64,000 bases of DNA from Dehalococcoidia bacterium (GTDB taxonomy: Bacteria; Chloroflexota; Dehalococcoidia; GIF9; UBA5629). The position numbers and the translations under genes are program-made. The notes under the pieces were generated by a model, which had not been told where the DNA came from, did not search any database, and was given only the letters and a program-made list of their open reading frames with translations. The stretch lies in assembly GCA_050011565.1 (NCBI GenBank), contig JBEKIW010000001.1, positions 224,001-288,000 of the forward strand, written 5' to 3'. This document shows positions 7,650-34,565 of the stretch, one piece after another (the first letter of the stretch is position 1; each line of letters starts with the position of its first letter).

Positions 7650-8912
7650 TTAGCTTTCTTTACTTTTCAGTTTAATCGGTATCACCGCAGCCGAACCGAT
7701 GATAAAGTATACGACACATATCAGAAGCATAACCGAATAGCCCAGTCCGGACTGCCTGGTGTTGAAAAAGTCGATTACCGGTCCTAAAAGTCTGGCTAGC
7801 GCTCCGGCTCCCGCTGTGGCTATATTGGTCAGTCCCAGGTAGCGCGCCTCTTCACCGGCCGGAACCAGGTCGGTAGCCAGTGCCCAGTTGGTGCTGAGAA
7901 AAGCTCCTGCAGACAGCCCCAGTAAACCGCCGCAGACCAATGTGCCCGCATAATTGCGTGACAGGAACAGCACCAAAATGCCAACGATGCCGACGAATCC
8001 TGAGAAGAGGATAATAGGCTTGCGGCCGAATCTATCAGAGAGCCGTCCCGCGGGATAAACTGCCAGGAGTAGAAAAACGCCGACTGTAATCAGTAAATCG
8101 GCGGCTACTCCCGCCGGGTTGGGATGATGTATGACATCTATTATGAAATACAGGGCAAAGGTCTGAAGTACCACCATTGCCATAAGGATGAACAATCGAG
8201 ACACGAGAAACCAGATAAAGCCGGGGTTGCCTTTAACATCGATCTTGTAGGCGCCAGCCATCGTTTTGACAGCCGACAGTTCACCAGTTGAAGATGACGG
8301 CTGCTCCTTTACCGTCAGCATAGTGGCCACCATCGCCGCCAGTAACATCAATCCGAGGAAGCCGATGGCTGCCCATAGCCATACATTACTGCCACTGGAA
8401 GTGTAATTATCCATGAAGTAAGCCACCAGTCGCAGGAAAGCTACACCGCCCAATATCTCCGCCAGGCCTTTGGCGCCGGAGGCTACTCCTCTACGTCCCG
8501 GCGGCACCAGGTCCGGAATAAACGCTTGAAAAGGACCCTGCGCTATGTTGGTAGCCACTTGCAGCAGGCAATAGCCTATGAGCAGGAAGAGGAAACTGCC
8601 GGAAATGCCTATGCTGGGCAGGAAGAGCAGGGCCAGCAGCGTTCCCACGAAGATAAAAGGCCGGCGCCGGCCCCAGCGCGAGCCGAAGCGGTCGCTGAGT
8701 GCCCCCGCCAGCGGTTGAACGAACACGGCTATCATCGATCCCACGAAGGTCAATAGACCGAGATAAGTGTTCTTTTGCGCATCGGGCGCGAACTCCAGAA
8801 GCCGGAGTGGAATTATCAGGCTGTGCAAGCTAGGCCAGAGAACCGAGAGAGCAGCGGCGAAAATGCTTATTTTTACATAATCGGCAGGTCGGAAGACTTT
8901 TTCTGAGGGCAC
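7650..8912 (-). CDS. MFS transporter
   Basis: GALSDRFGSRWGRRRPF and GRLSDRFGRK motif-A copies; about 12 TM helices. Confidence 0.88.
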   Translation of the reverse strand: MPSEKVFRPADYVKISIFAAALSVLWPSLHSLIIPLRLLEFAPDAQKNTYLGLLTFVGSMIAVFVQPLAGALSDRFGSRWGRRRPFIFVGTLLALLFLPSIGISGSFLFLLIGYCLLQVATNIAQGPFQAFIPDLVPPGRRGVASGAKGLAEILGGVAFLRLVAYFMDNYTSSGSNVWLWAAIGFLGLMLLAAMVATMLTVKEQPSSSTGELSAVKTMAGAYKIDVKGNPGFIWFLVSRLFILMAMVVLQTFALYFIIDVIHHPNPAGVAADLLITVGVFLLLAVYPAGRLSDRFGRKPIILFSGFVGIVGILVLFLSRNYAGTLVCGGLLGLSAGAFLSTNWALATDLVPAGEEARYLGLTNIATAGAGALARLLGPVIDFFNTRQSGLGYSVMLLICVVYFIIGSAAVIPIKLKSKES

Positions 8913-9020
8913 TGTAATTATCCCTATTAAGGGCGATTGTGCAGCTTTTCGGGGTAGTATATCACAGCTAGAGGATAACCACAGCTTGATTTGATGAGCA
9001 ATCAGCTGAAAATAGTCTGG

Positions 9021-9719
9021 TTAAATTCTGGGCAGAAGCGCTGCATATTTTTCCATCCGGCTCATGCCCGCTTCCGACTGTATCATCCACGTCATCCAGC
9101 ACAGCGCGATAGCCTTGTAGCCGACTTCCGGCGCTGTGCGCTCCATAAACTTAACGAATTCGATATCTGTTGACGGCATCTCCACGTTCGCCTTGGCTAA
9201 CATTTCAGCGATTACCCGTTTTACTATCTTGTCCGGCATCACCGTATCGACGCCGCCCATCATCCTCAGGTATTGAAAGCTGTTTATGCCGACTCCTTTA
9301 ATTCGGCCTATCGGGTCCGCCTCCCAGTTATCGAGGCTGGCGTTCCTTGCCCAATAGATGAAAGCCTGTCTATCGTCGAATCCCTTTTCTTTCTTAATCC
9401 CGGCTAAATAAGCGGCGACCGACTTTGCCATCTGCCACGAGCGCCTGTTTCTCCACACCTTTTCCAGTTCGGCAACATCGGCTGCAACCAAATCCTCAAC
9501 AGTTCTAATTTTTCCAGATTCTACGAATTCCTGCCTGAACTGCTCCACCCTGGGCACTACTGACTGGAAATAGTTTAAGCCGATGGATGTAAAAGCCGCA
9601 TCTACCACCATAAGGACGACATTCCCATCCCATCTTTCGGTCCGCAGGCAGCGCTCGATATAGTCGCTGACCTCAGGGACCTGCTGCATGTAGCTGTCGA
9701 CTGCGTCTTTGAGATTCAA
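9021..9719 (-). CDS. Hypothetical protein with helix-hairpin-helix motif (HhH-GPD glycosylase-like)
   Basis: IGRIKGVGINSFQYLRMMGGVDTVMPD resembles HhH followed by the conserved Asp. Confidence 0.5.
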   Translation of the reverse strand: MNLKDAVDSYMQQVPEVSDYIERCLRTERWDGNVVLMVVDAAFTSIGLNYFQSVVPRVEQFRQEFVESGKIRTVEDLVAADVAELEKVWRNRRSWQMAKSVAAYLAGIKKEKGFDDRQAFIYWARNASLDNWEADPIGRIKGVGINSFQYLRMMGGVDTVMPDKIVKRVIAEMLAKANVEMPSTDIEFVKFMERTAPEVGYKAIALCWMTWMIQSEAGMSRMEKYAALLPRI

Positions 9720-9750
9720 ACCGCGTACAATCTTTCTGATTCGTAATTCA

Positions 9751-10014
9751 TTACAGGCTTTGATATGTATCTTCTCTACGCCTGGCTATTCGCACTATGG
9801 TGATTAGTTTCGTCTTGTCGTCTATGGCATATACCACTCTATATTTTCTCGCACGAATGCGCCATAGGCCGCTGTCAGCTAGCTTCTTGACTCTCCGTGG
9901 TGGTGGTTCTTGTGCCAGAGAGGAAATAATTTCGGCGATGGCTTTATAATCTCGTTCCGGCAGCTCATTCAATTGTTTTTGAGCTGCATGCCTAAGCTCA
10001 ATCTTGTAGCTCAC
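9751..10014 (-). CDS. RelE/ParE-family toxin
   Basis: 87 aa, basic; YKIEL..AAQKQL...WRIRARKYRVVYAIDD; overlaps the upstream antitoxin. Confidence 0.85.
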   Translation of the reverse strand: MSYKIELRHAAQKQLNELPERDYKAIAEIISSLAQEPPPRRVKKLADSGLWRIRARKYRVVYAIDDKTKLITIVRIARRREDTYQSL

Positions 10015-10249
10015 GCCGAAGTCCCCGCTCTTTCCTGTGATGCTGATACGTTTCCCAGGTAATAGTGCCTTTCTTATCGGCCAGGGCTTTCAGCCCCTCC
10101 CTGACATCTTCCTCATCCTCCAGTATCTCTAATGTGGCGTCACGGATGAGTTTAGCCATTGAAGTACGTTGTTCGAAAGCTAATCGGCGGAGCCTCTCAT
10201 GTTGCTCCTCTGTCAGAAAAATAGTCGTTCTTTTTAAATTTGTGGCCAT
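9998..10249 (-). CDS. CopG/RHH antitoxin
   Basis: KRTTIFLTEEQHERLRRLA..SMAKLIRDA ribbon-helix-helix with acidic C-terminal half; upstream of the toxin. Confidence 0.8.
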   Translation of the reverse strand: MATNLKRTTIFLTEEQHERLRRLAFEQRTSMAKLIRDATLEILEDEEDVREGLKALADKKGTITWETYQHHRKERGLRRELQD

Positions 10250-10341
10250 GGTCTATTCCCCCTCGATAAGGGTAACATATATATGTTGATATGTCAAAGA
10301 GGTCTTTAAGAGGTGTTACTTCCAGATATTAATAGCGGTAG

Positions 10342-10950
10342 TCATCCGGATTTTGTGCTGACCCTAACCCTTCTGACTATAAAGAATATGACAGCCGCCG
10401 CCACGAAAACGGCAAGCATATCGATGTACAAAGAATATTTTTCCAGAATATTCCAATTTTGCTTGAGCAGGTAGCCGACAAAGACCAGCGCCAGATTCCA
10501 CGGTATCGACCCTATAAAAGTAAATATGCAGAACTTAGGAAAGTTCATCTTACCGATGCCGGCCGGCAGTGCATTAACCGTTCTCACCAGAGGCAACATT
10601 CTGCAGAACAAGACAGTCAAACTGCCATACTTGTCAAACCATCTCTCTATCAGTTGAAGATGCCCCATGTTCAGCAGCACGTATTTCCCATATCTTTCAA
10701 TGAATCCTCTGCCGAGATACTTGCCTATTTCATAGGCTATTATGGAACCGGTCACATTGGCCAGGGAACTGACCAGTACGATTAACCAGATATTCATTTC
10801 TCCCATGTAGGCCAGGAACCCGGCGAACGGTATCACAGCCTCGCTGGGTATCGGAATCAAGGCGGATTCCAGCGTCATGGTGACGAAAATTCCTGCATAT
10901 CCCCAGGAGGATATCAGCCCGGTTATGAATTCAAGTATGTTTAGTATCAT
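10342..10950 (-). CDS. DedA family membrane protein
   Basis: LESALIPIPSE and CRMLPLVRT..LPAG motifs. Confidence 0.9.
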   Translation of the reverse strand: MILNILEFITGLISSWGYAGIFVTMTLESALIPIPSEAVIPFAGFLAYMGEMNIWLIVLVSSLANVTGSIIAYEIGKYLGRGFIERYGKYVLLNMGHLQLIERWFDKYGSLTVLFCRMLPLVRTVNALPAGIGKMNFPKFCIFTFIGSIPWNLALVFVGYLLKQNWNILEKYSLYIDMLAVFVAAAVIFFIVRRVRVSTKSG

Positions 10951-11070
10951 TGCTTAGCCAGCATTATATCATTTAATAATTACGTGCTGAATTGCAGTAA
11001 TCGGAAAAATTTTTACTGTCTTGCTTTATTCTTAGTGGTTGTGGTGGTAAAATTAGGCTGAGCGTTAAGC

Positions 11071-18732: not shown

Positions 18733-20226
18733 ATGTCAGAATGGACAAAGCCCGCTCTCGATGATATAGAGTTTGTTAAGGCCGTTAGCGCGATTCAGAA
18801 ACGTGCTGAGAAACAAACGGACTCTGACAGATTAATCGATATTTATGTGACTACAGACCTAGCCAATCGTGCTAGAACCACTAATTCACAGCTAGTTTTA
18901 GGCAGACGTGGCACAGGTAAGACGCATATGTTTCGCGTTTTGCAAGAAATGCTTGGAATGGAGGGAGAAGTTGCACTTTACATAGATTGTAGAATGTTAG
19001 GAAGTGCGATAACCGACTCAACAGGAAACCCCCAAGGGGTAGCTATTAAATATTTTAGAACTCTTCTTAATGAGATTAGCACACGATTATTTGATATGGC
19101 TAGACGTATGGAAGCACCAATAAAGGATTCACAACAAAAAGTTTTCGGTACCGTCTGGGGTTTGCTCCTACAGATAGAACCTAAATCCACAGAGAAATAT
19201 TATGAATCAACATTTAATTATAGGCAAATAACGGAATCAATGCAGACAATTATTTCCGGTTTGGATATACGTCATCTATTCATAATATTGGATGAGTGGT
19301 CACAAATTCCAGTATCAGCACAACCCTATGTTGCAGAATATCTTAAAAGGGCAATTATGACTATTCCAGAAATATGTATCAAATTATTGGCCTTAAGCTA
19401 TCAATGCGACCTATCTAAACAAATCAGTGAAGGAGTAATAGGCATCAAACTTGGAGCAGATATCCCGGATGTCTTGGATTTTGATTCGTATTTAATATAT
19501 GATGAAAAACCGATTTTTGTTTCAGAGTTCTTTTCTCAAGTTCTTTACAATCATCTCGGTGCCGAACTAAACTGGGATCTCAAGATAACCGGTCAAGAAA
19601 AGAGCAAAAGGATAATAGATATATTCACACAGAATAAAGCTTTCACTGAATTAGTGCGTGCAGCTGAAGGGAATTGTAGAGATTTCCTATGCATATTTGG
19701 TAATGCATATTGGGAAGGTTATCGTAAGCAAGAGGATGTAAAAGCCATAAGTATGTCACATGTTCGCGATGCCGCTGCTAGTTGGTTTGATAATGAAAAG
19801 TATGCAAACATACGAAATGACATACTCCCAAGTATGGCACTTATGTATATATTCAATAATCTTATCAAGGGATACAAATCTCGGACTTTCATGGTCGAAA
19901 CCTCGAAATCTAAACATGAGATTTTGACCAGGTTACTAAATGAACGTGTTTTACATAAATTACCAAGATTTGACTCGCATAAAGATAAACCTGGTGAAAG
20001 ATATGAACTATTTACGATTGATTATGGGGCATATGTAAGGTTCATAGGAACCGTTTACGAGCCGAACCAAGGAATGGTTAAAAATGGATATCAAGCTAAA
20101 ATGCATTTTGCAGATGAGGTGGTCACAGTGCAAGATGAAGAACAAGAATTCATGGTTCCTCACGATGATAGACGTAGCGTACGACGTATTGTATTTGATC
20201 CAGATGCGATTAAGATTCCAAAATGA
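18733..20226 (+). CDS. AT-rich orphan P-loop ATPase (ORC/Cdc6- or STAND-like)
   Basis: Walker A GRRGTGKT, Walker B FIILDEW, AEGNCRDF sensor-like motif; visibly more AT-rich than its flanks. Confidence 0.7.
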   Translation: MSEWTKPALDDIEFVKAVSAIQKRAEKQTDSDRLIDIYVTTDLANRARTTNSQLVLGRRGTGKTHMFRVLQEMLGMEGEVALYIDCRMLGSAITDSTGNPQGVAIKYFRTLLNEISTRLFDMARRMEAPIKDSQQKVFGTVWGLLLQIEPKSTEKYYESTFNYRQITESMQTIISGLDIRHLFIILDEWSQIPVSAQPYVAEYLKRAIMTIPEICIKLLALSYQCDLSKQISEGVIGIKLGADIPDVLDFDSYLIYDEKPIFVSEFFSQVLYNHLGAELNWDLKITGQEKSKRIIDIFTQNKAFTELVRAAEGNCRDFLCIFGNAYWEGYRKQEDVKAISMSHVRDAAASWFDNEKYANIRNDILPSMALMYIFNNLIKGYKSRTFMVETSKSKHEILTRLLNERVLHKLPRFDSHKDKPGERYELFTIDYGAYVRFIGTVYEPNQGMVKNGYQAKMHFADEVVTVQDEEQEFMVPHDDRRSVRRIVFDPDAIKIPK

Positions 20227-22707: not shown

Positions 22708-22744
22708 AGAGCCGGCACCTGTTACAGAACAAGTGCCGGCTTTA
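22708..22744. terminator. Terminator at the end of the FHA operon (likely bidirectional)
   Basis: AGCCGGCAC-n-GTGCCGGCT stem with an A-run on the left and a T-run on the right. Confidence 0.7.
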
Positions 22745-22751
22745 AATGTGG

Positions 22752-24038
22752 CTAAGTTTTGAAGGTCAGGGTAAGGATGTCGGCAAGCTCGACTTTGTCA
22801 CCTTCTCTCAATAAGTACCTGCCTTTTCCCTCGATACTGGACCTGTTCAGTTTGGTGCCGTTGGTGCTGTTGCGGTCCTCGATATAACATTCTCCATCTT
22901 CACAGTCGAATCGTATGTGCTGCCTGGAAATCAGGTCAGCTTTGTCCGGCTTCACCAGGGAGCGGAAATCACTTCTGCCCAGAGATCCGGCATTGCCGGA
23001 TAGGGATAATTGCTCACCGTTCGACAATATAAACTTCGGCCCAGGGCCCGTGTCGACGGGTGTGGTGGCCGGGGCACCATTTGCAGTCCGTGTAGCGGTA
23101 GCCAGATATCCGGCCCGTGCACCGGCATAGGCTGCGGTAGGCCTTCTAACAAAAAGGACGACGGCCGCCGCGGCGGCTACAGCCAGAAGTCCGAGCAACA
23201 TGATATACAACATCCCGGAATTGCCCGAGCCGTCGCCGCTCAACCCGCTGGTCAAGATACTACTTGTTCCCGTATTGGCGACGTTTCCACTGCCGGCTAT
23301 TGGCGTGCTGCTGGTGGTGTAGGTGGATACGTACGGAGCGACCGTCACGGTGGTGCTGGCATTCACGCTGCCATCGCTATTGGTAGCCGTAAGTGTATAG
23401 GTAGTTGTATAACCAGGACTCAGATTGTATGAGCCAGAACTTGGGACAGACCCAATCCCGGGGGATAAAGTGACCGTAGTTGCATCGTTCACCGTCCACG
23501 TCAGCACAATTCCCTGCCCACTCTGAATGTAAGATGGGTTAGCGGTAAACGAGTTGATTACCGGCGGACAGTCAATTTGCGGTTGAGGCTGCCGTTGAGG
23601 CTGCTGAACTACTACCACGTTCGAACATACGTAATAGGACCACCTATAGTTACAAGGCCAGGAACATTCCGGACAACAGCGAAAGTATTGATTAGGCCAC
23701 GGGGAGCTCCACCTATAGGGTGGTGGTGGTGTAGGTGGGGCAGGCGGCGGCGGAGGAGGAGGAGGAGGAGGTGGTGGTGGAGGTGGTGGAGGTGGTGGAG
23801 GTGGCGGTGGTGGCGGTGCCGATGGTGCAGGTGGTGGAGGAGCAGAAGAGGTAGAGGTGGCGGTGGCAGTAGCAGTAGCAGTGGCAGTGGCGGAGGAATC
23901 GGTGGTGGTGACCGTAGCGGTGGCCGTAGCGGTGGCCGTAGCGGTATCTTCGGCAGATACCGGTGTGGCCTGGAATACTGGCGCAGAGCATAGTAATAAT
24001 GCTGCTGCAAGGACTAGGATTGCTTTTTTGAAGTTCAT
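22752..24038 (-). CDS. Single-pass membrane FHA protein A (signal peptide, Thr/Ala repeat, poly-Pro, Cys-rich, Ig-like, TM, FHA)
   Basis: C-terminal LGRSDF...ISRQH...EDRNSTNGT FHA motifs after a TM segment ending RRP. Confidence 0.85.
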   Translation of the reverse strand: MNFKKAILVLAAALLLCSAPVFQATPVSAEDTATATATATATVTTTDSSATATATATATATSTSSAPPPPAPSAPPPPPPPPPPPPPPPPPPPPPPPPPAPPTPPPPYRWSSPWPNQYFRCCPECSWPCNYRWSYYVCSNVVVVQQPQRQPQPQIDCPPVINSFTANPSYIQSGQGIVLTWTVNDATTVTLSPGIGSVPSSGSYNLSPGYTTTYTLTATNSDGSVNASTTVTVAPYVSTYTTSSTPIAGSGNVANTGTSSILTSGLSGDGSGNSGMLYIMLLGLLAVAAAAAVVLFVRRPTAAYAGARAGYLATATRTANGAPATTPVDTGPGPKFILSNGEQLSLSGNAGSLGRSDFRSLVKPDKADLISRQHIRFDCEDGECYIEDRNSTNGTKLNRSSIEGKGRYLLREGDKVELADILTLTFKT

Positions 24039-24141
24039 TGTACCTCCTTATTTATTTTTTATTTTTTAAACTTCAATAACAGAACAGAGCAAACCAAAAA
24101 TGCTGTTGTCAGGATGAAAATTGTCTTTCTGAAATTCATGG

Positions 24142-25716
24142 TCACTCCTTATTTATATTTTGTTTCTGGAAATTGATGCTAAGTTTGCCGGCAAGCTCAA
24201 TTACATCGCCGTCAGCCAGCGCATGCCGGCCGGTCCCCTTGATATCCGTACCGTTGACCCTGGTGCCGTTGGTGCTGCTGCGGTCCTCGATGTAGTACTG
24301 GTCGTTTTCGGACCATATGTTGATGTGCTGCCTGGATATGTAAGAGACCTGTGCACTGGGCATGAAATCCTCAAAGTCACGCCTGCCGAACGACCTGGTA
24401 TTACCTGCCAGCAGTATATCGTTCCCGCCCGCCAGGGAGAGTTTAGCCGCGGCGGCCTCTACCACAGGCGTGGTGACTGGCTGTGTATCCGAGGTATTTG
24501 TGTCTTCAGTCTGAGTGGCGTGTCCTGCTTGTGTGTCTGCCGCCTGTACCCTGCGGGCTTTAGCAGGTCTCCTGATAAGCAAAATGGCTATGACTATGAC
24601 CGTTATGGCCAGCAAGGCTATAAGGCCCCAGAGCAAATAGGGCGGCTGCTCTACATTGACCGTTACCGATGTTGACTGCGAAGTACCGTCAATATAGGCA
24701 GCGGTCAGGGTGTACGTAGTCGTATTATCCGGCGATACCTGCGTGGTGCCGCTGATGTCGGCGCTGCCGACGCCGGTGATTAGTACCCGGATTGCCCCGG
24801 GGGCATTCCAGTAGAGGGACGTCGACTGCCCCCTCTGTATGGTGGACTGGCTCATATTAATGGTGGGCGACACCCTGGGCCTGACCGTTATGGTTGCAGT
24901 CGATGAAACAGAGCTGCCCGATTTGCCGTTGGCCGCCAGAGTATAGGTGGTGGTGGCGGTTGGACTCACCGTAGTAGAGCCGGAAGCGGCGACCGTTCCA
25001 ACTCCGGGTGATATGCTCACGCTGGCAGCGTTAGTGGTCGTCCAGGTGAGTATAGCTGTCTCACCGGCTTCGATAGAAGATTTGTTGGCGCTGAATGAGC
25101 TAATCGATGGGGGATTATAAACCGGCGCCGGCGTAAAGTCGGGTATGTCCGGTGGATAATAACTCCGGATGTAATTGAAGTTCAATAAACGCGTCGACCA
25201 TGAATACCCGGAAAGGAACCACATCCTCCAGGTGTACCCTCCGGCAGGGTCAAACGACTGGGCGGCAAAAGGACCTATTCTCCAGACGCCGGCGTACGGG
25301 CGATACCATCTGTAACACAGCCAGTGTCCGTAGGGCGAAGTGCCGTAAGGGTAGTATTCCCATAGATAGAAATAGCCCGGCCCGTTGAAGGAAACGACCA
25401 GATAGATTGCCTCGTTTCCATATAGGTTGCTCAGTGTCTGACCGTAGCTGTTGACGAGGTAGGCATTTACCATTGAGCTCGGGATACCGGGTTCCAGGGA
25501 CAGCGGCGCCATTTGCAGGCTCGGCGAGGTCTGGCTGTATGTTTCCGCTGGCACCGGTGGCTCTATAGACTCTCCTCCTTCATCGGGAGGTTGCCATGAT
25601 TCATCAGGGCTTAATGGCGGAACCGGGTTGTCGTCTGCCCGGACGGGTGAGATTTCAGTAATGGCGACTGAGAAAGCCAGGGTGGTGACCAGCAAAGCTA
25701 TCAAGATTTTTTTCAT
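24142..25716 (-). CDS. Single-pass membrane FHA protein B (signal peptide, unknown beta domain, 2 Ig-like repeats, TM, FHA)
   Basis: MKKILIALL signal peptide; FGRRDF...ISRQH...EDRSSTNGT. Confidence 0.85.
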   Translation of the reverse strand: MKKILIALLVTTLAFSVAITEISPVRADDNPVPPLSPDESWQPPDEGGESIEPPVPAETYSQTSPSLQMAPLSLEPGIPSSMVNAYLVNSYGQTLSNLYGNEAIYLVVSFNGPGYFYLWEYYPYGTSPYGHWLCYRWYRPYAGVWRIGPFAAQSFDPAGGYTWRMWFLSGYSWSTRLLNFNYIRSYYPPDIPDFTPAPVYNPPSISSFSANKSSIEAGETAILTWTTTNAASVSISPGVGTVAASGSTTVSPTATTTYTLAANGKSGSSVSSTATITVRPRVSPTINMSQSTIQRGQSTSLYWNAPGAIRVLITGVGSADISGTTQVSPDNTTTYTLTAAYIDGTSQSTSVTVNVEQPPYLLWGLIALLAITVIVIAILLIRRPAKARRVQAADTQAGHATQTEDTNTSDTQPVTTPVVEAAAAKLSLAGGNDILLAGNTRSFGRRDFEDFMPSAQVSYISRQHINIWSENDQYYIEDRSSTNGTRVNGTDIKGTGRHALADGDVIELAGKLSINFQKQNINKE

Positions 25717-25760
25717 GTGTGACATTAAACTCCCGAATACCATATGTTCTATTAAGATTA

Positions 25761-25826
25761 ACTATACGTCTGGCGGGAGCAGGCTGCTTGACTCTGGGCT
25801 GACAGGTCACTGACAGTTACCTGACA
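25761..25826 (-). promoter_or_regulatory. Promoter with 4 direct repeats at 11-bp period
   Basis: (T/C)TGAC(T/A) at 25788, 25799, 25810 and 25821; TATAGT -10 on the minus strand at 25766-25761. Confidence 0.7.
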
Positions 25827-25887
25827 AAATAGAAGACGCAGATAAATTATTATTGAGGGGTTAATCTGTGATGGGTTTTCCCAGGGG

Positions 25888-26970
25888 TCAAAGGAGGTGA
25901 AACTTTAGATGTACCGCACCGGCCGGTTCTATAATGTCATCGTCATCCAGGCTGACCGGTCCCTGGCCGCTGATGTCCTTGCCGTTTAGATGGGTGCCGT
26001 TGGCGCTGCCCAGGTCCTCGACGTAGAACTGCTCGTCGTCCAATTTAATCTGGAAATGTCGTCTGGAGATGAGCCCCAGGTCATCCAGGCTTAGCGCTCT
26101 GGCGAGGTCACCCCGGCCTATCACTCTGCTCTTGCCGGAAAGCTGAATATCGATGCCATTGGGTAAGGTTATTTTTGCCCTGGCGGCTGATGGTAAGGCT
26201 GCAGATAGGTCTTTAGTCTTTGCCCCACCTGACGAGGATACACTATCCTGACTTCTCCTTCGCCTGATATAAATCGGCAGCAGAGCCAGACCGACCACTA
26301 CGACCAGCAGGCAGGCGCCGAGAACCGGCCGGGTGATAAGTCCAAAGACTGTAGCGGGGAAGCTAGCTTCTTTGGCAGGGGCTTCGGGTGATGGTGGCGG
26401 TACCGGCTCAGCAGGTTTGCCTTTCGAATACGTCCAGTAAACAAGATTATTCTGTGGAGTATCCGGGTTTCCAGCAGCCCATTGGCCGTCGCTGTAGAAC
26501 CGAATCCGGTAAATATGTTGTCCCTCCGGTTCGTTATTCGTGGGTGTAAAGGGGCCAAGCCGCCACAGGCCGCTTTCCAGCAATTGCCATTTGTAGGCTA
26601 GCCACTGTCCCTGAAAATCACCGCCAGCCGGAAAGGATTCATATATATAAATCCACCCGGGCATGTTTATGTCCACGTCCAGGTACCAGTTTTCATTTGC
26701 AGTGACCGTGAATTCTTCCTGTCCTGAGGCAGCGATGAAACCAGCTATAAAGTTAGGAGTCGTATTTTCAGACTGAGACGTAGGTTCCACCAGGACATAT
26801 TCGACCGGCGGCTTGATTTCAACCTGAGACTGGTCGCCGGCGGGGACATTCGGTATAGTCGTATTATCAGTTGGCGCTCCCAGCGCCCCGACATATGCCG
26901 TCTGGAGGCTCAGCGCTGAAAAAACGCCGAAAATCAAAGTAAAAGTAAGCAACAGTAACGCTTTTCTCAT
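25888..26970 (-). CDS. Single-pass membrane FHA protein C (signal peptide, unknown beta domain, TM, FHA)
   Basis: IGRGDL...ISRRHF...EDLGSANGT; TM followed by RRRR. Confidence 0.85.
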   Translation of the reverse strand: MRKALLLLTFTLIFGVFSALSLQTAYVGALGAPTDNTTIPNVPAGDQSQVEIKPPVEYVLVEPTSQSENTTPNFIAGFIAASGQEEFTVTANENWYLDVDINMPGWIYIYESFPAGGDFQGQWLAYKWQLLESGLWRLGPFTPTNNEPEGQHIYRIRFYSDGQWAAGNPDTPQNNLVYWTYSKGKPAEPVPPPSPEAPAKEASFPATVFGLITRPVLGACLLVVVVGLALLPIYIRRRRSQDSVSSSGGAKTKDLSAALPSAARAKITLPNGIDIQLSGKSRVIGRGDLARALSLDDLGLISRRHFQIKLDDEQFYVEDLGSANGTHLNGKDISGQGPVSLDDDDIIEPAGAVHLKFHLL

Positions 26971-27992
26971 TTCCGTGACTTGACCTCGACAGACTTTACC
27001 GGATAGCCGTCCGCTGACGATAAAGCGGCACGAAAAGCTTGTGCGTCAGCAAACCTGTGGTCGGCGGAGAACAGTATGCCCTGTGCCAGGCATTTTGCCG
27101 TGCGCTTGGATATGCCGCAGGAAATAAGGTAATCGGCAACAGCAGTGGCTTCAGCGTAAGAACGCGGCCAGTTGGACTTGAACAAGTCCAGGCAAATCTC
27201 GTTCGGCTGCTTGAGTGTGAGGAGATATATACAGGTCTGTGCCAGGCCGAAGAGGTCGCAGCGCTGGTCGCAGTCCCCGCCAATGAACAATTCGGGAATA
27301 TCGAAACCCTTGTTTGTTATCTTGGTGAACGGGTCATGGCCTGCCTTATCTTTGCCTGAACCATTCAAGTTTTTCGCCGTGCCGAAATCGATAAGCTTGA
27401 CCGTGCCGTCGCTGCTCAACATGATGTTCTTTGGGTTAATATCCCTGTGAATTACGCCAGCTTTGTGAATATAGGAAAGAGCATCCAGCAGCTGGCAAGC
27501 CCAGGCGACGACCTGTGGCTCCTGAAAAGGAGTTCTCGGCGATGATGCCATTAGGGTCTCTCCATTCACGTACTCAACGACCAGGTGAAATTCGCCCTTA
27601 TAGTAGAAATTGTCGACGTATTTAACGATGCCGGTATGTTTCAGCCGCTTCAGGTAGCTGGCTTCCAGCATCAGCTTGTCCAGGTACACGTTATCCATCG
27701 TCGTGCCCCGGCGCGGTGTCTTGATAATGCACGCCCTGCCTGTTCTGCGCTCCCGGGCGAACCATATAGTCGCCATGCCACCCTGTTTATGAGGCGGTGC
27801 CATCAGTTCATAGCGACTGTTAACGACGTATATGTTATTACCCGCCTGGGCAGGTATCTGTGTCTTCCCGTGGTTTGAACGTGAGCTGTGGCTCTTACGC
27901 TTACGAAGGGCAATCAATATAGCCACGGCTACTATCAGAACCGTATAGACCAGGACCATTAACAAAACGATATCATCTGTAGGCCACATCAT
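26967..27992 (-). CDS. Hanks-type protein kinase with N-terminal TM anchor
   Basis: QGGMATIW, CIIKT, alphaC Glu, IHRDINPKN, IDFG; 4-bp overlaps with both neighbours. Confidence 0.9.
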   Translation of the reverse strand: MMWPTDDIVLLMVLVYTVLIVAVAILIALRKRKSHSSRSNHGKTQIPAQAGNNIYVVNSRYELMAPPHKQGGMATIWFARERRTGRACIIKTPRRGTTMDNVYLDKLMLEASYLKRLKHTGIVKYVDNFYYKGEFHLVVEYVNGETLMASSPRTPFQEPQVVAWACQLLDALSYIHKAGVIHRDINPKNIMLSSDGTVKLIDFGTAKNLNGSGKDKAGHDPFTKITNKGFDIPELFIGGDCDQRCDLFGLAQTCIYLLTLKQPNEICLDLFKSNWPRSYAEATAVADYLISCGISKRTAKCLAQGILFSADHRFADAQAFRAALSSADGYPVKSVEVKSRK

Positions 27993-28807
27993 ATTCTCCT
28001 GATGCTGGTCTGGGCTGTAATCATAGCCTGCCAGGATGGAAGGTTGTCGGGTTTCACCACTATTATCGATATATTATCCGGTCCGCCCGCCAGGTTAGCC
28101 TGAGCCGTCAGGTCAATGCAGGCCTGGTTGGGATTGGGAGAACCGGTAACGGTCTCCGATATCTCAGGTGAAGGCAACACGCCGCACAGACCGTCGGAAC
28201 AGAGGAGGATATTGTCACCGGCGTATAGTTTTACATGAAACAGGTCCGGGACAACGGTCCGGGCATAACCAAGTACGCGCGTTATCTCGTTCTTGCGCGG
28301 GTGGTTCCAGGCTTGTTCCGGTGTGATAGTTCCTGCATCCACGAGCTGTTGGACTACAGAATGGTCTTTGGTGATCTGGATGGTCTCCCGTCCGTTGATT
28401 ACATAGCACCTGGAATCGCCTATATGGGCGACATATAGGTCCTCACCTACAACAAGTGCAGCGGTCAGGGTAGTACCCATGCCTTTCAACTCACCCTCGG
28501 CGGCAGAATCCAGAACCTTGCGGTTAGCCTTCTTGAAGGCAGCAGCCAAAATAGACAGGGGTGGAGTCGGGGACTGGGCGAGAAGACCGGAAATACACTC
28601 TGCATGGAGGGTCCTGGTGGCGAGGTCGCTGGCAATTTCACCGGCACTGTGCCCGCCCATACCGTCTGCCACGGCAAAGAGGCCAGCGGAGATTGTTCCC
28701 AGGTGGGTCCTGAGATCGAAGCTGGTGCATAAAACGCTATCTTCGTTGAGGTCTCTTAGCAGACCTGTGTCCCAGCTATAACCTATTTCCAATCGGTCCT
28801 CCGGCAT
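27989..28807 (-). CDS. PP2C-family Ser/Thr phosphatase
   Basis: RDLNED, VADGMGGH, MGTT, HIGDSR, LCSDG, GGPDNIS. Confidence 0.95.
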   Translation of the reverse strand: MPEDRLEIGYSWDTGLLRDLNEDSVLCTSFDLRTHLGTISAGLFAVADGMGGHSAGEIASDLATRTLHAECISGLLAQSPTPPLSILAAAFKKANRKVLDSAAEGELKGMGTTLTAALVVGEDLYVAHIGDSRCYVINGRETIQITKDHSVVQQLVDAGTITPEQAWNHPRKNEITRVLGYARTVVPDLFHVKLYAGDNILLCSDGLCGVLPSPEISETVTGSPNPNQACIDLTAQANLAGGPDNISIIVVKPDNLPSWQAMITAQTSIRRI

Positions 28808-28814
28808 TTCTGCT

Positions 28815-29411
28815 TCATTTCGACTCTTTCAGCAATTTGAAAGTCAGTGTAAGTTCCGGCTGACCGGCCAGTTCAATCTTATCGCCGTCTTGGAGAGCCT
28901 TCTTTCTTTTGTCATAGATATCAATTCCGTTAAGCCTGGTATGGTTGGTGCTGCCCTTACCGTCGCGTCCGTAGTCCTTCAAGTAGTATTTGCCTCTATC
29001 ACAGGTAATCAAAATATGCTGCCTGGAAACTCTCATCAGCAACTCTGGTGATAATGTGCCGTTAAAATCGCCGCGCTCTATGAACACAGGCTCACCGGTG
29101 AGGGTGATTTCACCACCGCCCGGCATCATCACCTTAGCTTTCGGCGCCGAAGACCGCAGTGCGCCCCGTTTCTGCCTGACTGGCCGCTTGCTTATTTTTG
29201 TTTCCTCTACATCGGCGAAATATTTACCGCAGGTGTAACAGAAAAAACTGGCGGCATTGTTTGTGCTCCGGCACCTGGGGCAGATGATTTTGCGTTCAGG
29301 CCCGTCCGGCGCTATGGCGGCAAGAGGCAGCCCGCATTTGCGACAGACTTTTTCGTGCGGCTCATTCTTTGTATGGCATGCCCGACAAAGCACTTTGGCT
29401 CGTTTAGTCAT
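28815..29411 (-). CDS. Double zinc-ribbon + FHA protein
   Basis: CRAC..CRKC and CPRC..CYTC pairs, then VSRQH...STNHT FHA; start set at MTKR (29411) because the longer ORF overlaps the opposite-strand gene and the promoter. Confidence 0.8.
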   Translation of the reverse strand: MTKRAKVLCRACHTKNEPHEKVCRKCGLPLAAIAPDGPERKIICPRCRSTNNAASFFCYTCGKYFADVEETKISKRPVRQKRGALRSSAPKAKVMMPGGGEITLTGEPVFIERGDFNGTLSPELLMRVSRQHILITCDRGKYYLKDYGRDGKGSTNHTRLNGIDIYDKRKKALQDGDKIELAGQPELTLTFKLLKESK

Positions 29412-29439
29412 TATTTTAGCAGTCCGTGGTTTTAACATC

Positions 29440-29505
29440 AGTGTAATTGATTGATGAGGACTTTGCTTGACAGCTTTCTGACAAATACCTAATATAAATC
29501 TGATA
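29440..29505 (-). promoter_or_regulatory. Divergent promoter with 4 direct repeats at 11-bp period
   Basis: TTGACA 29467, CTGACA 29478, CTAATA 29489, CTGATA 29500; minus-strand TACACT -10 at 29445-29440. Confidence 0.7.
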
Positions 29506-29586
29506 TACTCATGGTTACGGGACGATTGTGACGTACGTATTATACTACAGGGAGCGAATACGGGCCCAAACGAATGGAGGTAAGGC

Positions 29587-30270
29587 GTGGCTTCTCTAAT
29601 TGTGAAGAGGGGTAATGCGGAGGATGTCGGTAAAATCTTCACTTTGAACGACTCGTCTACCGTGGTGGGCCGCCTGACTTCGCAGAATAAACCTGATATA
29701 GAATTGGGCGCCGATGTTATTTCCAGACGGCACCTGGAAATCCTGCTGCAGGATGGCAGGTACTGGCTGAAAGACCTGGGCAGCACCAACGGCACCATGC
29801 TAAATGATGACAGGATAATTCCTGGCAATCTATACGAACTCAAGCATAACAGCAAGATCGGGCTTGGGGTGGAAGGAACTTCAGCGCAAACAGTTCTGCA
29901 GTTTAAGGAATCCGAAGATACTAACATAATGCACGGGAAAGAACCCCCGGCTGGAAAGCACGGCACGTTCCCTGCAGTGGCATGGCTGAAAATCGACGAG
30001 GGGAAAAAGGAAGCTGTGGTAGACGGCAAACAGCAGAAGCTATCCAAAAAGGAGTATGAGCTGATACGGTTGCTCTATAGAAATGCCGGAAATATATGCT
30101 CGCGTGACGAGATAATTGAAGCCGTATGGCCCGAAAGCCAGGACCCTTCGGCTATATCCGATGCCACCATCGACCAGCTAATTCACCGGCTGCGTGAAAA
30201 AGTGGAACCCGAACCTGCCAGCCCCTCGCGTATCATCAGCAAAAAAGCATTCGGTTATATGCTGGTGTAA
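29587..30270 (+). CDS. FHA + OmpR/PhoB-type winged-helix transcriptional regulator
   Basis: VGR...ISRRH...DLGSTNGT FHA; LSKKEYELI...SRDEIIEAVW...IHRLREKVE...GY (Trans_reg_C-like). Confidence 0.9.
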   Translation: MASLIVKRGNAEDVGKIFTLNDSSTVVGRLTSQNKPDIELGADVISRRHLEILLQDGRYWLKDLGSTNGTMLNDDRIIPGNLYELKHNSKIGLGVEGTSAQTVLQFKESEDTNIMHGKEPPAGKHGTFPAVAWLKIDEGKKEAVVDGKQQKLSKKEYELIRLLYRNAGNICSRDEIIEAVWPESQDPSAISDATIDQLIHRLREKVEPEPASPSRIISKKAFGYMLV

Positions 30271-32872: not shown

Positions 32873-33160
32873 ATGTGGCAGATACATTTTTGTCCCCACT
32901 GCGGGGCCAGAGCCGCGTATAGCGCCAGATTCTGCGGCACTTGCGGTTTTGACTTAACATCGGTAGCGCCAGAGGTACCGCCTCCGTCCTATGACTATCA
33001 GTATCCGTATCAGCAATGGGTACCATCGGCGGCGTATATAGATCAAGTACAGCAGAGATTCGTACCTGGAAGTGATATAAATGCCAGGCCGATGAGCGCC
33101 GAGATTTCAAAGCTGCTGGGAGACTTATTCGATAAACGCCTTAAATACAACAAGGCATAG
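32873..33160 (+). CDS. Zinc-ribbon protein
   Basis: FCPHCG...FCGTCG N-terminus with a Pro/Tyr/Gln-rich tail. Confidence 0.7.
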   Translation: MWQIHFCPHCGARAAYSARFCGTCGFDLTSVAPEVPPPSYDYQYPYQQWVPSAAYIDQVQQRFVPGSDINARPMSAEISKLLGDLFDKRLKYNKA

Positions 33161-33269: not shown

Positions 33270-34565
33270 CTACAGAGTAGAATCAGGGTTCGTCTCATCT
33301 GTAGCTTTTTTTGCCGTCTCTGAGTCCGGTGGTATAGGTATGGCCGGAGCTTCAGTAATTACAGGATAGTCTGAGGCAGCCGGTGCCGATGGCGCCGCTT
33401 CCAGCACCTGGCCGGGTACGGCAGCCGGCATGGGATATGTCGTCAATGTCGGTTCAGGAGTTGGAGCCGGTTCGACTACCGGCAAAGATGATACCGGCAG
33501 TGCCGGTTCGGGTGTGATTTCCGGTGACGGAACTGTTGCCACCGCAAAATCCGGGTTTAACTCATTTGTGGCTTCAGGAGTCTGTAATGTCTCAGGTGCC
33601 GGCGTGGTTTCCGGTGAGGGTTCTATTGCGGTAGCAGAATCAATGTTTAGCTCATTCGTAGCTTCTGGAGTCTGTAAAGTCTCCGGTGCCGGCACGGCTG
33701 GAATCTCAGTAATTACAGGAGTCTCTGTTGCAGCTGGTGTAGATGGGGTCGTTTCCAGCACCTGGTCGGGGACATCAACCGGTGTCGAATATGTGGCTAA
33801 GGCAGGCTCCGGAGCCGGTGTCAGTTCAGCTGAGTCTGATACTGATGGCTCAAATGTTACCGGAGATAGTATTGCTGCGGGGAGCTCCCCAGTTGTTATT
33901 TCATTCGCTGCCATAGGCTCGGTTGCCGGAGTGCCGGCTGTTACATCTGTTAATATCGGGTGCGGGAAGGTTACGCACTGTGGGTCAGGGCTGCGTGAAG
34001 GATGTGGATTTGGACAGGGCGAAGGATGTGGATGTGGACAGGGTGAAGGTTCAGGTTGGGGGGAGGGAGGTCCGAAAGGATGATTTCCCCAAGGGCTATA
34101 GTGATTACCAAAAAGATATGGATAAAAATAATAAGAAGAAAGTAGCCATGAGCTTGGTGAATAACAGGTCGTGGGACAGGGCGGTGTATAAGAGCAGGGT
34201 AATTGATATGAACTCGGTGGTTGGTATGTGCAGGGATTGTAATAATAGGGTGACGCGGTCACACATCCATACGGACTAATCAGATTGTTGTTGACACAGT
34301 CTTGCGCAGCTTTATCACAGGTGCTGCACTCCGTCGATGTCTGTTGGAGCTGGTTTTGAAGCTGCTGGTTCTGATTCTGCACGTTTTGAAGCGCCTCTTG
34401 CGTGGCCTGCAGGTTATTTTGCGTCGTTTCCAGCGATAAACTCAGCGCCTGTACTTTGTATTGAAGTTCCTGCAGGTCTTTCTGGCTGGCAGCAGGAGTA
34501 CAGGCAGCACCGAGGAATGTAACTAAAAGTAGTAGTGAAGCTAGCCCGCATACCTTTTTTAACAT
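33270..34565 (-). CDS. Lipoprotein with coiled coil, Cys/Tyr-rich region and Pro/Thr/Glu-rich repetitive tail
   Basis: LGAAC lipobox-like motif; Gln-rich heptads; PAPETLQTPEATNELN repeated twice. Confidence 0.7.
   Translation of the reverse strand: MLKKVCGLASLLLLVTFLGAACTPAASQKDLQELQYKVQALSLSLETTQNNLQATQEALQNVQNQNQQLQNQLQQTSTECSTCDKAAQDCVNNNLISPYGCVTASPYYYNPCTYQPPSSYQLPCSYTPPCPTTCYSPSSWLLSSYYFYPYLFGNHYSPWGNHPFGPPSPQPEPSPCPHPHPSPCPNPHPSRSPDPQCVTFPHPILTDVTAGTPATEPMAANEITTGELPAAILSPVTFEPSVSDSAELTPAPEPALATYSTPVDVPDQVLETTPSTPAATETPVITEIPAVPAPETLQTPEATNELNIDSATAIEPSPETTPAPETLQTPEATNELNPDFAVATVPSPEITPEPALPVSSLPVVEPAPTPEPTLTTYPMPAAVPGQVLEAAPSAPAASDYPVITEAPAIPIPPDSETAKKATDETNPDSTL

Follow-up and report, generated by a model that had tools for sequence, protein, structure and literature searches.

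A cluster of seven genes at positions 22752-30270 of a 64,000-nucleotide stretch of DNA from an uncultured Dehalococcoidia bacterium (contig JBEKIW010000001.1; the whole stretch is called the window below) appears to encode a self-contained, autoregulated phosphothreonine (pThr) signalling module with a kinase-to-regulator output, a reading to which we assign a probability of about 55%. According to the list of open reading frames (ORFs) and Pfam, six genes lie on the minus strand and one diverges from them on the plus strand. They encode three membrane proteins with FHA domains (here labelled RecA, RecB, and RecC), a Hanks-type kinase, a PP2C phosphatase, a soluble zinc-ribbon protein with an FHA domain (DZR-FHA), and a regulator combining an FHA domain with a winged helix-turn-helix (FHA-wHTH), and as a set these predicted proteins look like a Ser/Thr counterpart of a two-component system. 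All seven genes are present, as is every domain named in an earlier, sequence-only reading of this DNA, and the coordinates place the 4-bp overlaps that it described at 27989-27992 (PP2C and kinase) and 26967-26970 (kinase and RecC).

22752-24038, minus strand: RecA, 428 aa (Pfam FHA, 1.2e-11)
24142-25743, minus strand: RecB, ORF of 533 aa (Pfam FHA, 3.2e-13)
25888-26970, minus strand: RecC, 360 aa (Pfam FHA, 2.2e-14)
26967-27992, minus strand: Hanks-type Ser/Thr kinase, 341 aa (Pfam Pkinase, 8e-34)
27989-28807, minus strand: PP2C phosphatase, 272 aa (Pfam PP2C, 2.2e-15)
28815-29411, minus strand: DZR-FHA, soluble, 198 aa (Pfam DZR, 2e-7, and FHA, 3.7e-9); coordinates corrected, the mechanical ORF extending to 30047
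29587-30270, plus strand: FHA-wHTH regulator, 227 aa (Pfam FHA, 6e-17, and Trans_reg_C, 3.7e-19)

The cluster is a closed phosphothreonine system within its host genome (2.0 Mb, 99.2% complete). Genome-wide Pfam searches placed all five FHA matches, the only Pkinase match, and the only PP2C_2 match of that genome inside it. The five FHA domains score 37.3-62.3 bits against a cut-off of 20.7, and their alignment shows that each retains the Arg (GR), Ser-x-x-His, and Asn of the pThr pocket, within the motifs GR (ER in DZR-FHA), SRxH, and S(T/A)N(G/H)T. Bacterial Hanks kinases usually have many substrates and obscure inputs; here, one kinase and one phosphatase are accompanied by five readers.

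The kinase starts with 7 residues, which are followed by one transmembrane (TM) helix at about residues 8-26 with acidic residues ahead of it, an RKRK stretch, and the kinase domain (hydropathy). This matches its earlier description as a membrane kinase with almost no N-terminal part, and the protein has no ectodomain. It scores 117.7 bits with Pkinase (PF00069; gathering cut-off 31.7). Among 24 aligned sequences, K91, E110 (the alpha-C Glu), H182-R183-D184, N189, D202-F203, T223, and P233-E234 are invariant and G204 nearly so, with DFN in one locus; across 24 to 30 kinases, Lys91, HRD, Asn189, DFG, Thr223, and PE are invariant or nearly so. The catalytic motifs are intact, and activity is predicted. 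Thr223 belongs to the activation loop and sits in an invariant stretch of the 24 aligned sequences, and the enzyme is an RD kinase, which is expected to need activation-loop phosphorylation. The phosphatase passes the NCBIfam Stp1/IreP equivalog (NF033484) with 241.9 bits against a cut-off of 230, and its catalytic motifs are conserved in the orthologue alignment. DZR-FHA combines a double zinc ribbon with its FHA domain and is soluble by hydropathy; a sequence search of the Protein Data Bank gave 0 matches at E 1e-3.

The output of the proposed module is the FHA-wHTH regulator, which consists of an FHA domain (residues 25-94), a linker with a conserved Thr112 (EDTNIM), and an OmpR/PhoB-type winged helix (148-226). 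Its Trans_reg_C score is 69 bits (cut-off 26.2), the best NCBIfam partial matches of the winged helix are PhoB and RpaB, and the closest structures are RegX3, WalR, and RstA. Pfam gave no Response_reg match, residues 25-94 being an FHA domain instead, and all NCBIfam response-regulator matches are limited to residues ~130-226 and lie under their cut-offs. Pfam confirms the FHA domain that the sequence-only reading had placed at the position of the receiver domain of an OmpR-type protein. Pfam likewise found no BTAD domain and the FHA domain is N-terminal, so the protein is not a member of the EmbR/SARP family; it may act like EmbR.

This architecture belongs to a wider family. An exhaustive HMMER search for the regulator recovered 15083 representatives at E 1e-3 and 604 at 1e-10, and 84 full-length matches (28-46% identity) were aligned together with the window protein, giving 85 rows. 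FHA and Trans_reg_C are both present in all 85 members, and a Thr aligned to Thr112, directly after the FHA domain, is kept in 79 of them. The residue at +1 from this Thr is mostly L, I, or V, and the residue at +3, which is the main specificity position of FHA domains after a pThr, is L, F, A, I, or V in 52/85. A match at E <=1e-25 was found in 74 of 301 evenly sampled Chloroflexota genomes, the weakest of these covering one domain only; a distant member (P0257) used as a single query gave partial FHA matches only, at 8 loci.

Among Chloroflexota, pairing of a kinase gene with an FHA-wHTH gene is common. At 22 of the 29 best Chloroflexota loci from other genomes, the FHA-wHTH gene has a Hanks kinase gene within a distance of 1.5 kb, mostly in divergent orientation, and two of the seven other loci are orthologues of the present cluster with the kinase just past the flank. 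At one locus from Ardenticatenaceae (L057), the regulator is paired with a 347-aa kinase that has a C-terminal TM tail only. Because the pair recurs across the phylum and a mini-cluster is seen in a relative (described below), we regard kinase and FHA-wHTH as the core, to which this Dehalococcoidia family added DZR-FHA, PP2C, and the ectodomain-bearing FhaB-like proteins. The literature searched, subscription journals and supplementary files aside, contained no description of this pair, of FHA-plus-OmpR-type regulators, or of this cluster.

Two operator-like repeat arrays, S1 and S2, connect the regulator with the remaining genes of the proposed module.

29464-29505, no strand assigned: array S1, three YTGA(C/T)A units at 29467, 29478, and 29500 (spacing 11 + 22 bp)
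25785-25829, no strand assigned: array S2, four YTGAC(A/T) units at 25788, 25799, 25810, and 25821 (11-bp phase)
29467-29495, plus strand: sigma-70-like promoter of the FHA-wHTH gene (TTGACA, 17 nt, TAATAT)
29440-29445, minus strand: -10-like hexamer TACACT, putative promoter of the DZR-FHA to RecC unit, 17 nt from S1
25761-25766, minus strand: -10-like hexamer TATAGT, putative internal RecB-RecA promoter, 17 nt downstream of S2
22710-22741, minus strand: terminator-like hairpin directly after the RecA stop (14-pair stem, 8 G-C pairs, T-rich tail)

S1 lies between the DZR-FHA and regulator genes and overlaps the regulator's own promoter, which has 10/12 matches, is the best of 8 sites in the region, and is conserved in orthologues. 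S2 lies in the RecC-RecB intergenic region, upstream of RecB-RecA. Read on the minus strand, the two arrays have the same geometry, in which the last unit is followed by GCA(A/G), 17 nt, and a -10-like hexamer, with a poor -35 box; the block with the TATAGT hexamer is conserved in orthologues. We infer two activator-dependent units, one comprising DZR-FHA, PP2C, kinase, and RecC and the other RecB and RecA, the second of which likely ends at the hairpin.

Both arrays stand out by conservation and by location. The intergenic DNA between DZR-FHA and regulator cannot be aligned across relatives save for the S1 block, and S2 is a conserved block in an otherwise unalignable spacer, kept in 22/22 aligned loci. 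The plain pattern TGACA-N6-TGACA occurs 7 times in the 2.0 Mb of the host genome (both strands), 3 of them in the cluster. Scanning that genome with a three-unit position weight matrix returned only S1 and S2, and a two-unit matrix gave 4 sites, 3 of them in the cluster, versus 0, 0, and 0 in three Markov-simulated genomes. Across 33 related loci (504 kb), 60 of 72 pattern matches fall at S1 or S2, and, of the 12 remaining matches, 10 are found immediately upstream of RecB. The upstream regions of the regulator loci L057 and L052 showed no obvious array.

A different owner of these arrays has to be considered, namely another OmpR-family regulator, for example of the PhoB-type phosphate-starvation kind, with FHA-wHTH binding elsewhere; a classical two-component system would then have the cluster among its targets. 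Of the 8 Trans_reg_C proteins of the host genome, 7 are encoded elsewhere than in the cluster. Pho boxes are tandem 7-bp direct repeats with 4-bp spacers, and on the minus strand S1 and S2 have this very layout, with 7-bp direct repeats, 4-bp spacers, and an 11-bp period, binding by the regulator being putative. The arrays are, however, practically confined to the cluster, whereas a phosphate regulon should show them at transporter genes, and S1 overlaps the FHA-wHTH promoter and accompanies this gene in every relative aligned. We consider this alternative improbable and assign the arrays to FHA-wHTH because they are co-located and co-conserved with it.

Two further observations concern repeat-like sites outside the cluster. 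The sole two-unit site elsewhere in the host genome (G000:C1:534395; L094, ~2896-2917) lies upstream of a 276-aa ORF without a Pfam family, adjoins a large serine recombinase gene, and is placed ~45 bp ahead of a TTGACA-17-TATTAT promoter; it could mark an extra regulon member or a mobile-element gene. At many of the divergent Chloroflexota kinase/FHA-wHTH pairs of loci L119-L133, two inverted TATAAT-like boxes (ATGGTAYAATC ... GATTRTACCAT) between the genes take the place of phased direct repeats.

The cluster as a whole is conserved within one family. Kinase orthologues were found in 11 of 40 sampled relatives, all belonging to that family (11/24 genomes), and in 0 of 16 sampled genomes from other families of the order; within the genus, 8 of 13 genomes have one. 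Gene order was followed in 33 Dehalococcoidia loci found through the regulator, and also in a set of 11 loci. All seven genes occur in the same order in 20 of the 33 loci, and nine more are cut by contig ends with the order kept. Two (L042, L056) have a RecB-like protein in the RecA slot, one (L038) is rearranged with RecB-like and RecA-like pieces elsewhere, and one (L052, 48% identity) contains the regulator alone. The sequence-only reading had named a lack of co-occurrence elsewhere as evidence against itself; instead, the genes co-occur and are syntenic in relatives, which argues that the cluster is not a product of chance. Same-genus genomes without the kinase orthologue either have no FHA domain (G001, 91% complete; G002, 77%; G012, 84%) or one unrelated FHA domain each (G003 and G008), and it follows that gain or loss affected the cluster in its entirety. 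A search of 301 genomes, sampled evenly across the class, found the W/Y-rich ectodomain common to RecB and RecC in 9: the query genome, every one of the 7 genomes sampled from this family, and one from a different family.

Two side observations come from the related loci. In seven clusters of metagenome-assembled genomes (L029, L030, L033, L035, L051, L053, and L055), one gene is frame-split or lacks its middle piece, the gene affected being the kinase, PP2C, DZR-FHA, or the regulator; either indels from the assembly or real decay may account for this. Furthermore, the relative at L095 (G004:C21) carries a second, paralogous mini-cluster at 7818-11068 without an FHA-wHTH gene. It consists of DZR-FHA (187 aa), a gap of ~770 bp without an ORF of at least 100 aa, a 345-aa kinase whose N-terminal part has two hydrophobic helices, and a membrane FHA protein of 224 aa that practically lacks an ectodomain.

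A mobile or defensive origin of the cluster was also weighed. Recent horizontal transfer was rejected on its GC content of 0.52-0.55, which equals that of its surroundings. If the cluster were a module for anti-phage defence or abortive infection with a Ser/Thr kinase at its centre, this would fit the matches of the kinase to the PADLOC PD-T4-6 and mad6 kinase models (best E 3.9e-43) and the patchy occurrence of the cluster within the genus. These matches are generic kinase-domain matches, however, and five of the seven proteins have no PADLOC match at all, PP2C showing weak matches to PDC-M21C (best E 5.3e-07). The flanking genes are housekeeping (NMO, alpha/beta hydrolase, SpoU methyltransferase, CDP-alcohol transferase), and conservation across the family, including the ectodomain in all seven of its sampled genomes, is vertical. 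On the generic nature of the kinase matches, the flanks, the matching GC content, and this vertical conservation, we rejected the defence reading, which we find hardly credible.

The remaining three proteins of the module are membrane FHA proteins. Topology and signal stretches were assigned by Kyte-Doolittle hydropathy and the positive-inside rule. At the N-terminus of all three proteins is a hydrophobic stretch resembling a signal peptide, and RR or RRRR comes after their single TM helix.

RecA: signal-like N-terminus, Thr/Ala-rich and poly-Pro stalk, Cys-rich stretch, immunoglobulin (Ig)-like domain, TM helix ~279-297, Thr-rich linker, cytoplasmic FHA 352-418
RecB: signal-like N-terminus, W/Y-rich beta-sandwich, two PKD/Ig-like domains, TM 372-390, conserved Thr-rich linker with a TTP motif, cytoplasmic FHA 452-517
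RecC: signal-like N-terminus, W/Y-rich beta-sandwich ectodomain ~55-185, TM 217-235, RRRR, linker, cytoplasmic FHA 283-347; 4-bp overlap of its start with the stop of the kinase gene

The kinase domain and every FHA domain are predicted to lie in the cytoplasm. Hydropathy and positive-inside charges thus agree with the placement originally proposed for the FHA domains, and none was placed outside. RecB probably starts at its second Met at 25716, which gives ~524 aa, because the orthologues begin there and a conserved GGGAG-type site lies ahead. The W/Y-rich ectodomain of RecC is paralogous to that of RecB, and alignments show good conservation of both ectodomains, in which numerous Trp, Tyr, and Gly residues are invariant. 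RecA is the most variable of the three, with strong variation between relatives in its stalk and N-terminal part and only 5 orthologues that align over at least 80% of its length. Inside its gene, at window positions 23700-23990, a run of ~40 prolines and Thr/Ala repeats give rise to long spurious ORFs in other frames.

Structural comparison supports the FHA assignment and gives a general picture of the ectodomains. In a wide VIA search, the listing for the RecC model was filled by FHA matches. The top match of its FHA domain was EmbR (2fez; Z 15.0, root-mean-square deviation (rmsd) 3.3, 93 aligned residues), and others included DgcB (6hbz; Z 14.6, rmsd 1.6, 90 aligned), FhaA (3oun; Z 13.6, rmsd 1.5, 84 aligned), ArnA (5a8i; Z 13.4, rmsd 1.7, 91 aligned), and the Rv1747 FHA structure. 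The RecB ectodomain model (pLDDT 81.5) shows three beta-sandwich domains, for which Foldseek returned generic tandem Ig matches. Its W/Y domain gave middling VIA matches to RbmA (4be5; Z 8.7, rmsd 2.7, 98 aligned), and further ones to the Wzt carbohydrate-binding domain (6o14; Z 8.4, rmsd 3.0, 105 aligned) and the A2M MG domain (2p9r; Z 7.7, rmsd 2.1, 90 aligned); the two distal domains matched PKD/Ig folds with Z 8-9.6. The ectodomain sequences have no family in Pfam, NCBIfam, or PADLOC, and the best ESM Atlas score was 0.77, under the useful range. Of the 159 proteins recovered by a word-based search for ectodomain homologues, at least 120 are RecC-like and at least 118 have an FHA domain.

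For these three proteins, a role other than sensing has to be weighed. They may be effectors or substrates of the FhaB/FipA kind in an inside-out envelope scaffold, in which kinase and PP2C control assembly or clustering through pThr-FHA contacts of Thr-rich linkers, as in Rv1747 or GarA. Such a scaffold would organise the surface of a peptidoglycan-less cell, with RecB and RecA as the regulated output of the transcription factor. FhaB/FipA (NF049868) is indeed the best NCBIfam match of RecA, RecB, and RecC, and residues 373-504 of RecB, spanning its TM helix, linker, and FHA domain, align to model positions 11-140 of 158. The scores of 33.8, 38.1, and 42.6 bits are, however, far under the cut-off of 125; the proteins share the arrangement of TM helix, linker, and C-terminal cytoplasmic FHA domain and carry large ectodomains in addition. 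Further support comes from the parts list, which equals that of the actinobacterial FhaA/FhaB-PstP-PknA/B locus, from the TTP motif ~12 residues ahead of the FHA domain in the conserved Thr-rich linker of RecB, and from the position of the strongest array, with four units, ahead of RecB-RecA. The adhesin-like or S-layer-like Ig/PKD strings of the ectodomains, the paralogous membrane FHA protein of L095, and the host's missing cell-wall enzymes (below) point the same way. On the other hand, the strongly conserved W/Y ectodomain also fits a module that binds a ligand or partner, and RecC is translationally coupled to the kinase. A complex prediction for the kinase with RecC residues 205-360 (paired 24-row alignments) scored 0.00, which speaks neither for nor against binding. 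We judge the scaffold to be somewhat unlikely; it and the autoregulated module are not mutually exclusive.

The cell surface of the host bears on either role. SEDS (FtsW/RodA) and penicillin-binding protein (PBP) transpeptidase matches are absent from the 99.2%-complete genome, and the cell is probably without peptidoglycan; a PASTA-type input would therefore find nothing to sense. Ectodomain-bearing membrane FHA proteins suggest how a PASTA-less lineage may link its surface to phosphosignalling.

As an autoregulated signalling module, the cluster could work as follows. The kinase would autophosphorylate on the invariant Thr223 of its activation loop and phosphorylate Thr-rich linkers, foremost the family-wide conserved Thr112 of FHA-wHTH. 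An FHA domain would then read pThr112, either in trans, yielding dimers, or in cis, acting as a switch, and this reading would replace the phospho-Asp-driven dimerisation of OmpR/PhoB receivers. The regulator would occupy the arrays, repress its own sigma-70-type promoter, and activate the two minus-strand units with poor -35 boxes, DZR-FHA/PP2C/kinase/RecC and RecB/RecA, and PP2C would reset the system. In the least supported step, the FhaB-like membrane FHA proteins, RecC first (its gene being coupled to that of the kinase by the 4-bp overlap), would form an extracytoplasmic arm as co-receptors or scaffolds and, in a peptidoglycan-less cell, let events on the outer side of the membrane govern the sensor-less kinase. 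With a single DNA-binding output, candidate operators, and one candidate phospho-acceptor Thr, this scheme is testable with few recombinant proteins.

A bolder version holds that the FHA-tailed proteins are ligand-binding co-receptors that form complexes with the sensor-less kinase through pThr-FHA docking, and that the FHA-wHTH family is a phylum-wide analogue of response regulators, switched by a Thr112 that is read by the protein's own FHA domain. We regard this combination as unlikely. If true, the co-receptor reading would give bacteria an equivalent of those kinase-less receptors whose signalling runs through an associated kinase.

Several points weigh against the autoregulated module. 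The position weight matrices were built from the very sites that they recover, and the plain-pattern count alone is independent. Comparable phased repeats were not found in 22 distant kinase/FHA-wHTH intergenic regions. S1 and S2 could be bound by any of the seven other OmpR-family proteins, and if the arrays are the regulator's sole targets, transcription would control just the cluster itself. On the side of input, the ectodomains could be given neither a ligand nor a specific fold, and their structural matches (Z 7.7-9.6) are generic Ig, PKD, and beta-sandwich domains of adhesin-like or carbohydrate-binding-like character, and the ectodomain-poor membrane protein of L095 implies that a membrane FHA partner need not be a sensor. 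The whole mechanism is a prediction from sequence and model data.

Other features of the window lie outside the cluster. At 18733-20226 (plus strand), a 497-aa ORC/Cdc6-like ATPase (PF24389, 1.5e-9) is encoded in a segment with a GC content of 0.41 versus ~0.51, which may be a foreign island. At 32873-33160 (plus strand), a gene for a small zinc-ribbon protein adjoins that of a 431-aa secreted protein (33270-34565, minus strand), which is Pro/Thr-rich and repetitive, has a coiled-coil-like N-terminus, and belongs to no Pfam family.

Compared with known systems, the cluster shares its parts list with an actinobacterial locus. The FhaA-FhaB(FipA)-PstP-RodA-PbpA-PknA-PknB locus combines a soluble FHA protein, a membrane FHA protein, a PP2C phosphatase, and membrane Hanks kinases, and its FHA domains recognise pThr in the juxtamembrane region of the kinase as well as in substrates. 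A soluble FHA protein, a TM-linker-FHA protein, a PP2C, and a membrane Hanks kinase are likewise found in the present cluster. It differs in that RodA and PbpA genes are absent both here and elsewhere in the host genome, that the kinase is anchored N-terminally and lacks PASTA or any other ectodomain, and that its three membrane FHA proteins carry large beta-sandwich ectodomains. In addition, it contains the FHA-wHTH factor and the operator-like arrays.

The output side resembles OmpR/PhoB regulators, with the same type of winged helix and tandem 11-bp-phased repeats that reach the -35 region of promoters with poor -35 boxes. Here, however, an FHA domain and a conserved Thr stand in for the receiver and its phospho-acceptor Asp, and the partner is a Hanks rather than a histidine kinase. 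DZR-FHA is similar to ArnA of Sulfolobus and to cyanobacterial FraH, which has a Zn-ribbon-FHA architecture; in each case, zinc ribbon(s) and a C-terminal FHA domain occur beside Ser/Thr kinases and phosphatases. In contrast to ArnA, DZR-FHA has no vWA partner like ArnB, and it has no sequence relation to solved chains at E 1e-3.

Sensing that is split from a Hanks kinase, with genes co-conserved in an operon, is described for PknG-GlnX-GlnH (PMC6069109), and split sensing is also described in PMC12189002. In the PknG-GlnX-GlnH-GarA system of Actinobacteria, a sensor-less kinase is under the control of an extracytoplasmic binding protein and a membrane protein, and an FHA protein serves as output. 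Homology to it is limited to the kinase and FHA domains: a solute-binding GlnH, a multi-pass GlnX, and the rubredoxin and TPR domains of PknG were all absent from the seven proteins by Pfam, and the likeness is one of logic only. The present cluster differs in that FHA domains sit on the membrane proteins themselves, its kinase has a membrane anchor, and a DNA-binding protein with an FHA domain forms the output.

PknH-EmbR of M. tuberculosis, described as a kinase with an FHA-containing winged-helix regulator, similarly pairs a Hanks kinase with a DNA-binding protein that has Trans_reg_C and FHA domains. EmbR is a SARP protein (wHTH, BTAD, C-terminal FHA), whereas the cluster regulator has an N-terminal FHA domain, no BTAD, and a PhoB/RpaB/RegX3/WalR-like wHTH, and PknH, unlike the cluster kinase, has its own sensor domain. 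The proposed reading of Thr112 by an FHA domain would resemble Bdellovibrio DgcB (FHA-GGDEF), in which the FHA domain reads a phosphopeptide from its own protein and thereby switches a dimeric output (PMC6733907). In DgcB, the output is a diguanylate cyclase and the phosphosite lies in the N-terminal tail; in the model for FHA-wHTH, Thr112 follows the FHA domain. Finally, a vWA-kinase-FHA-PP2C operon is described from Deinococcus in a preprint (bioRxiv 10.64898/2026.01.23.701218). The sequence-only reading had known of no described system with this full architecture; this holds for the full architecture only, and split sensing and the parts list are both already described. The module is a variation on described Hanks-kinase/FHA signalling modules.

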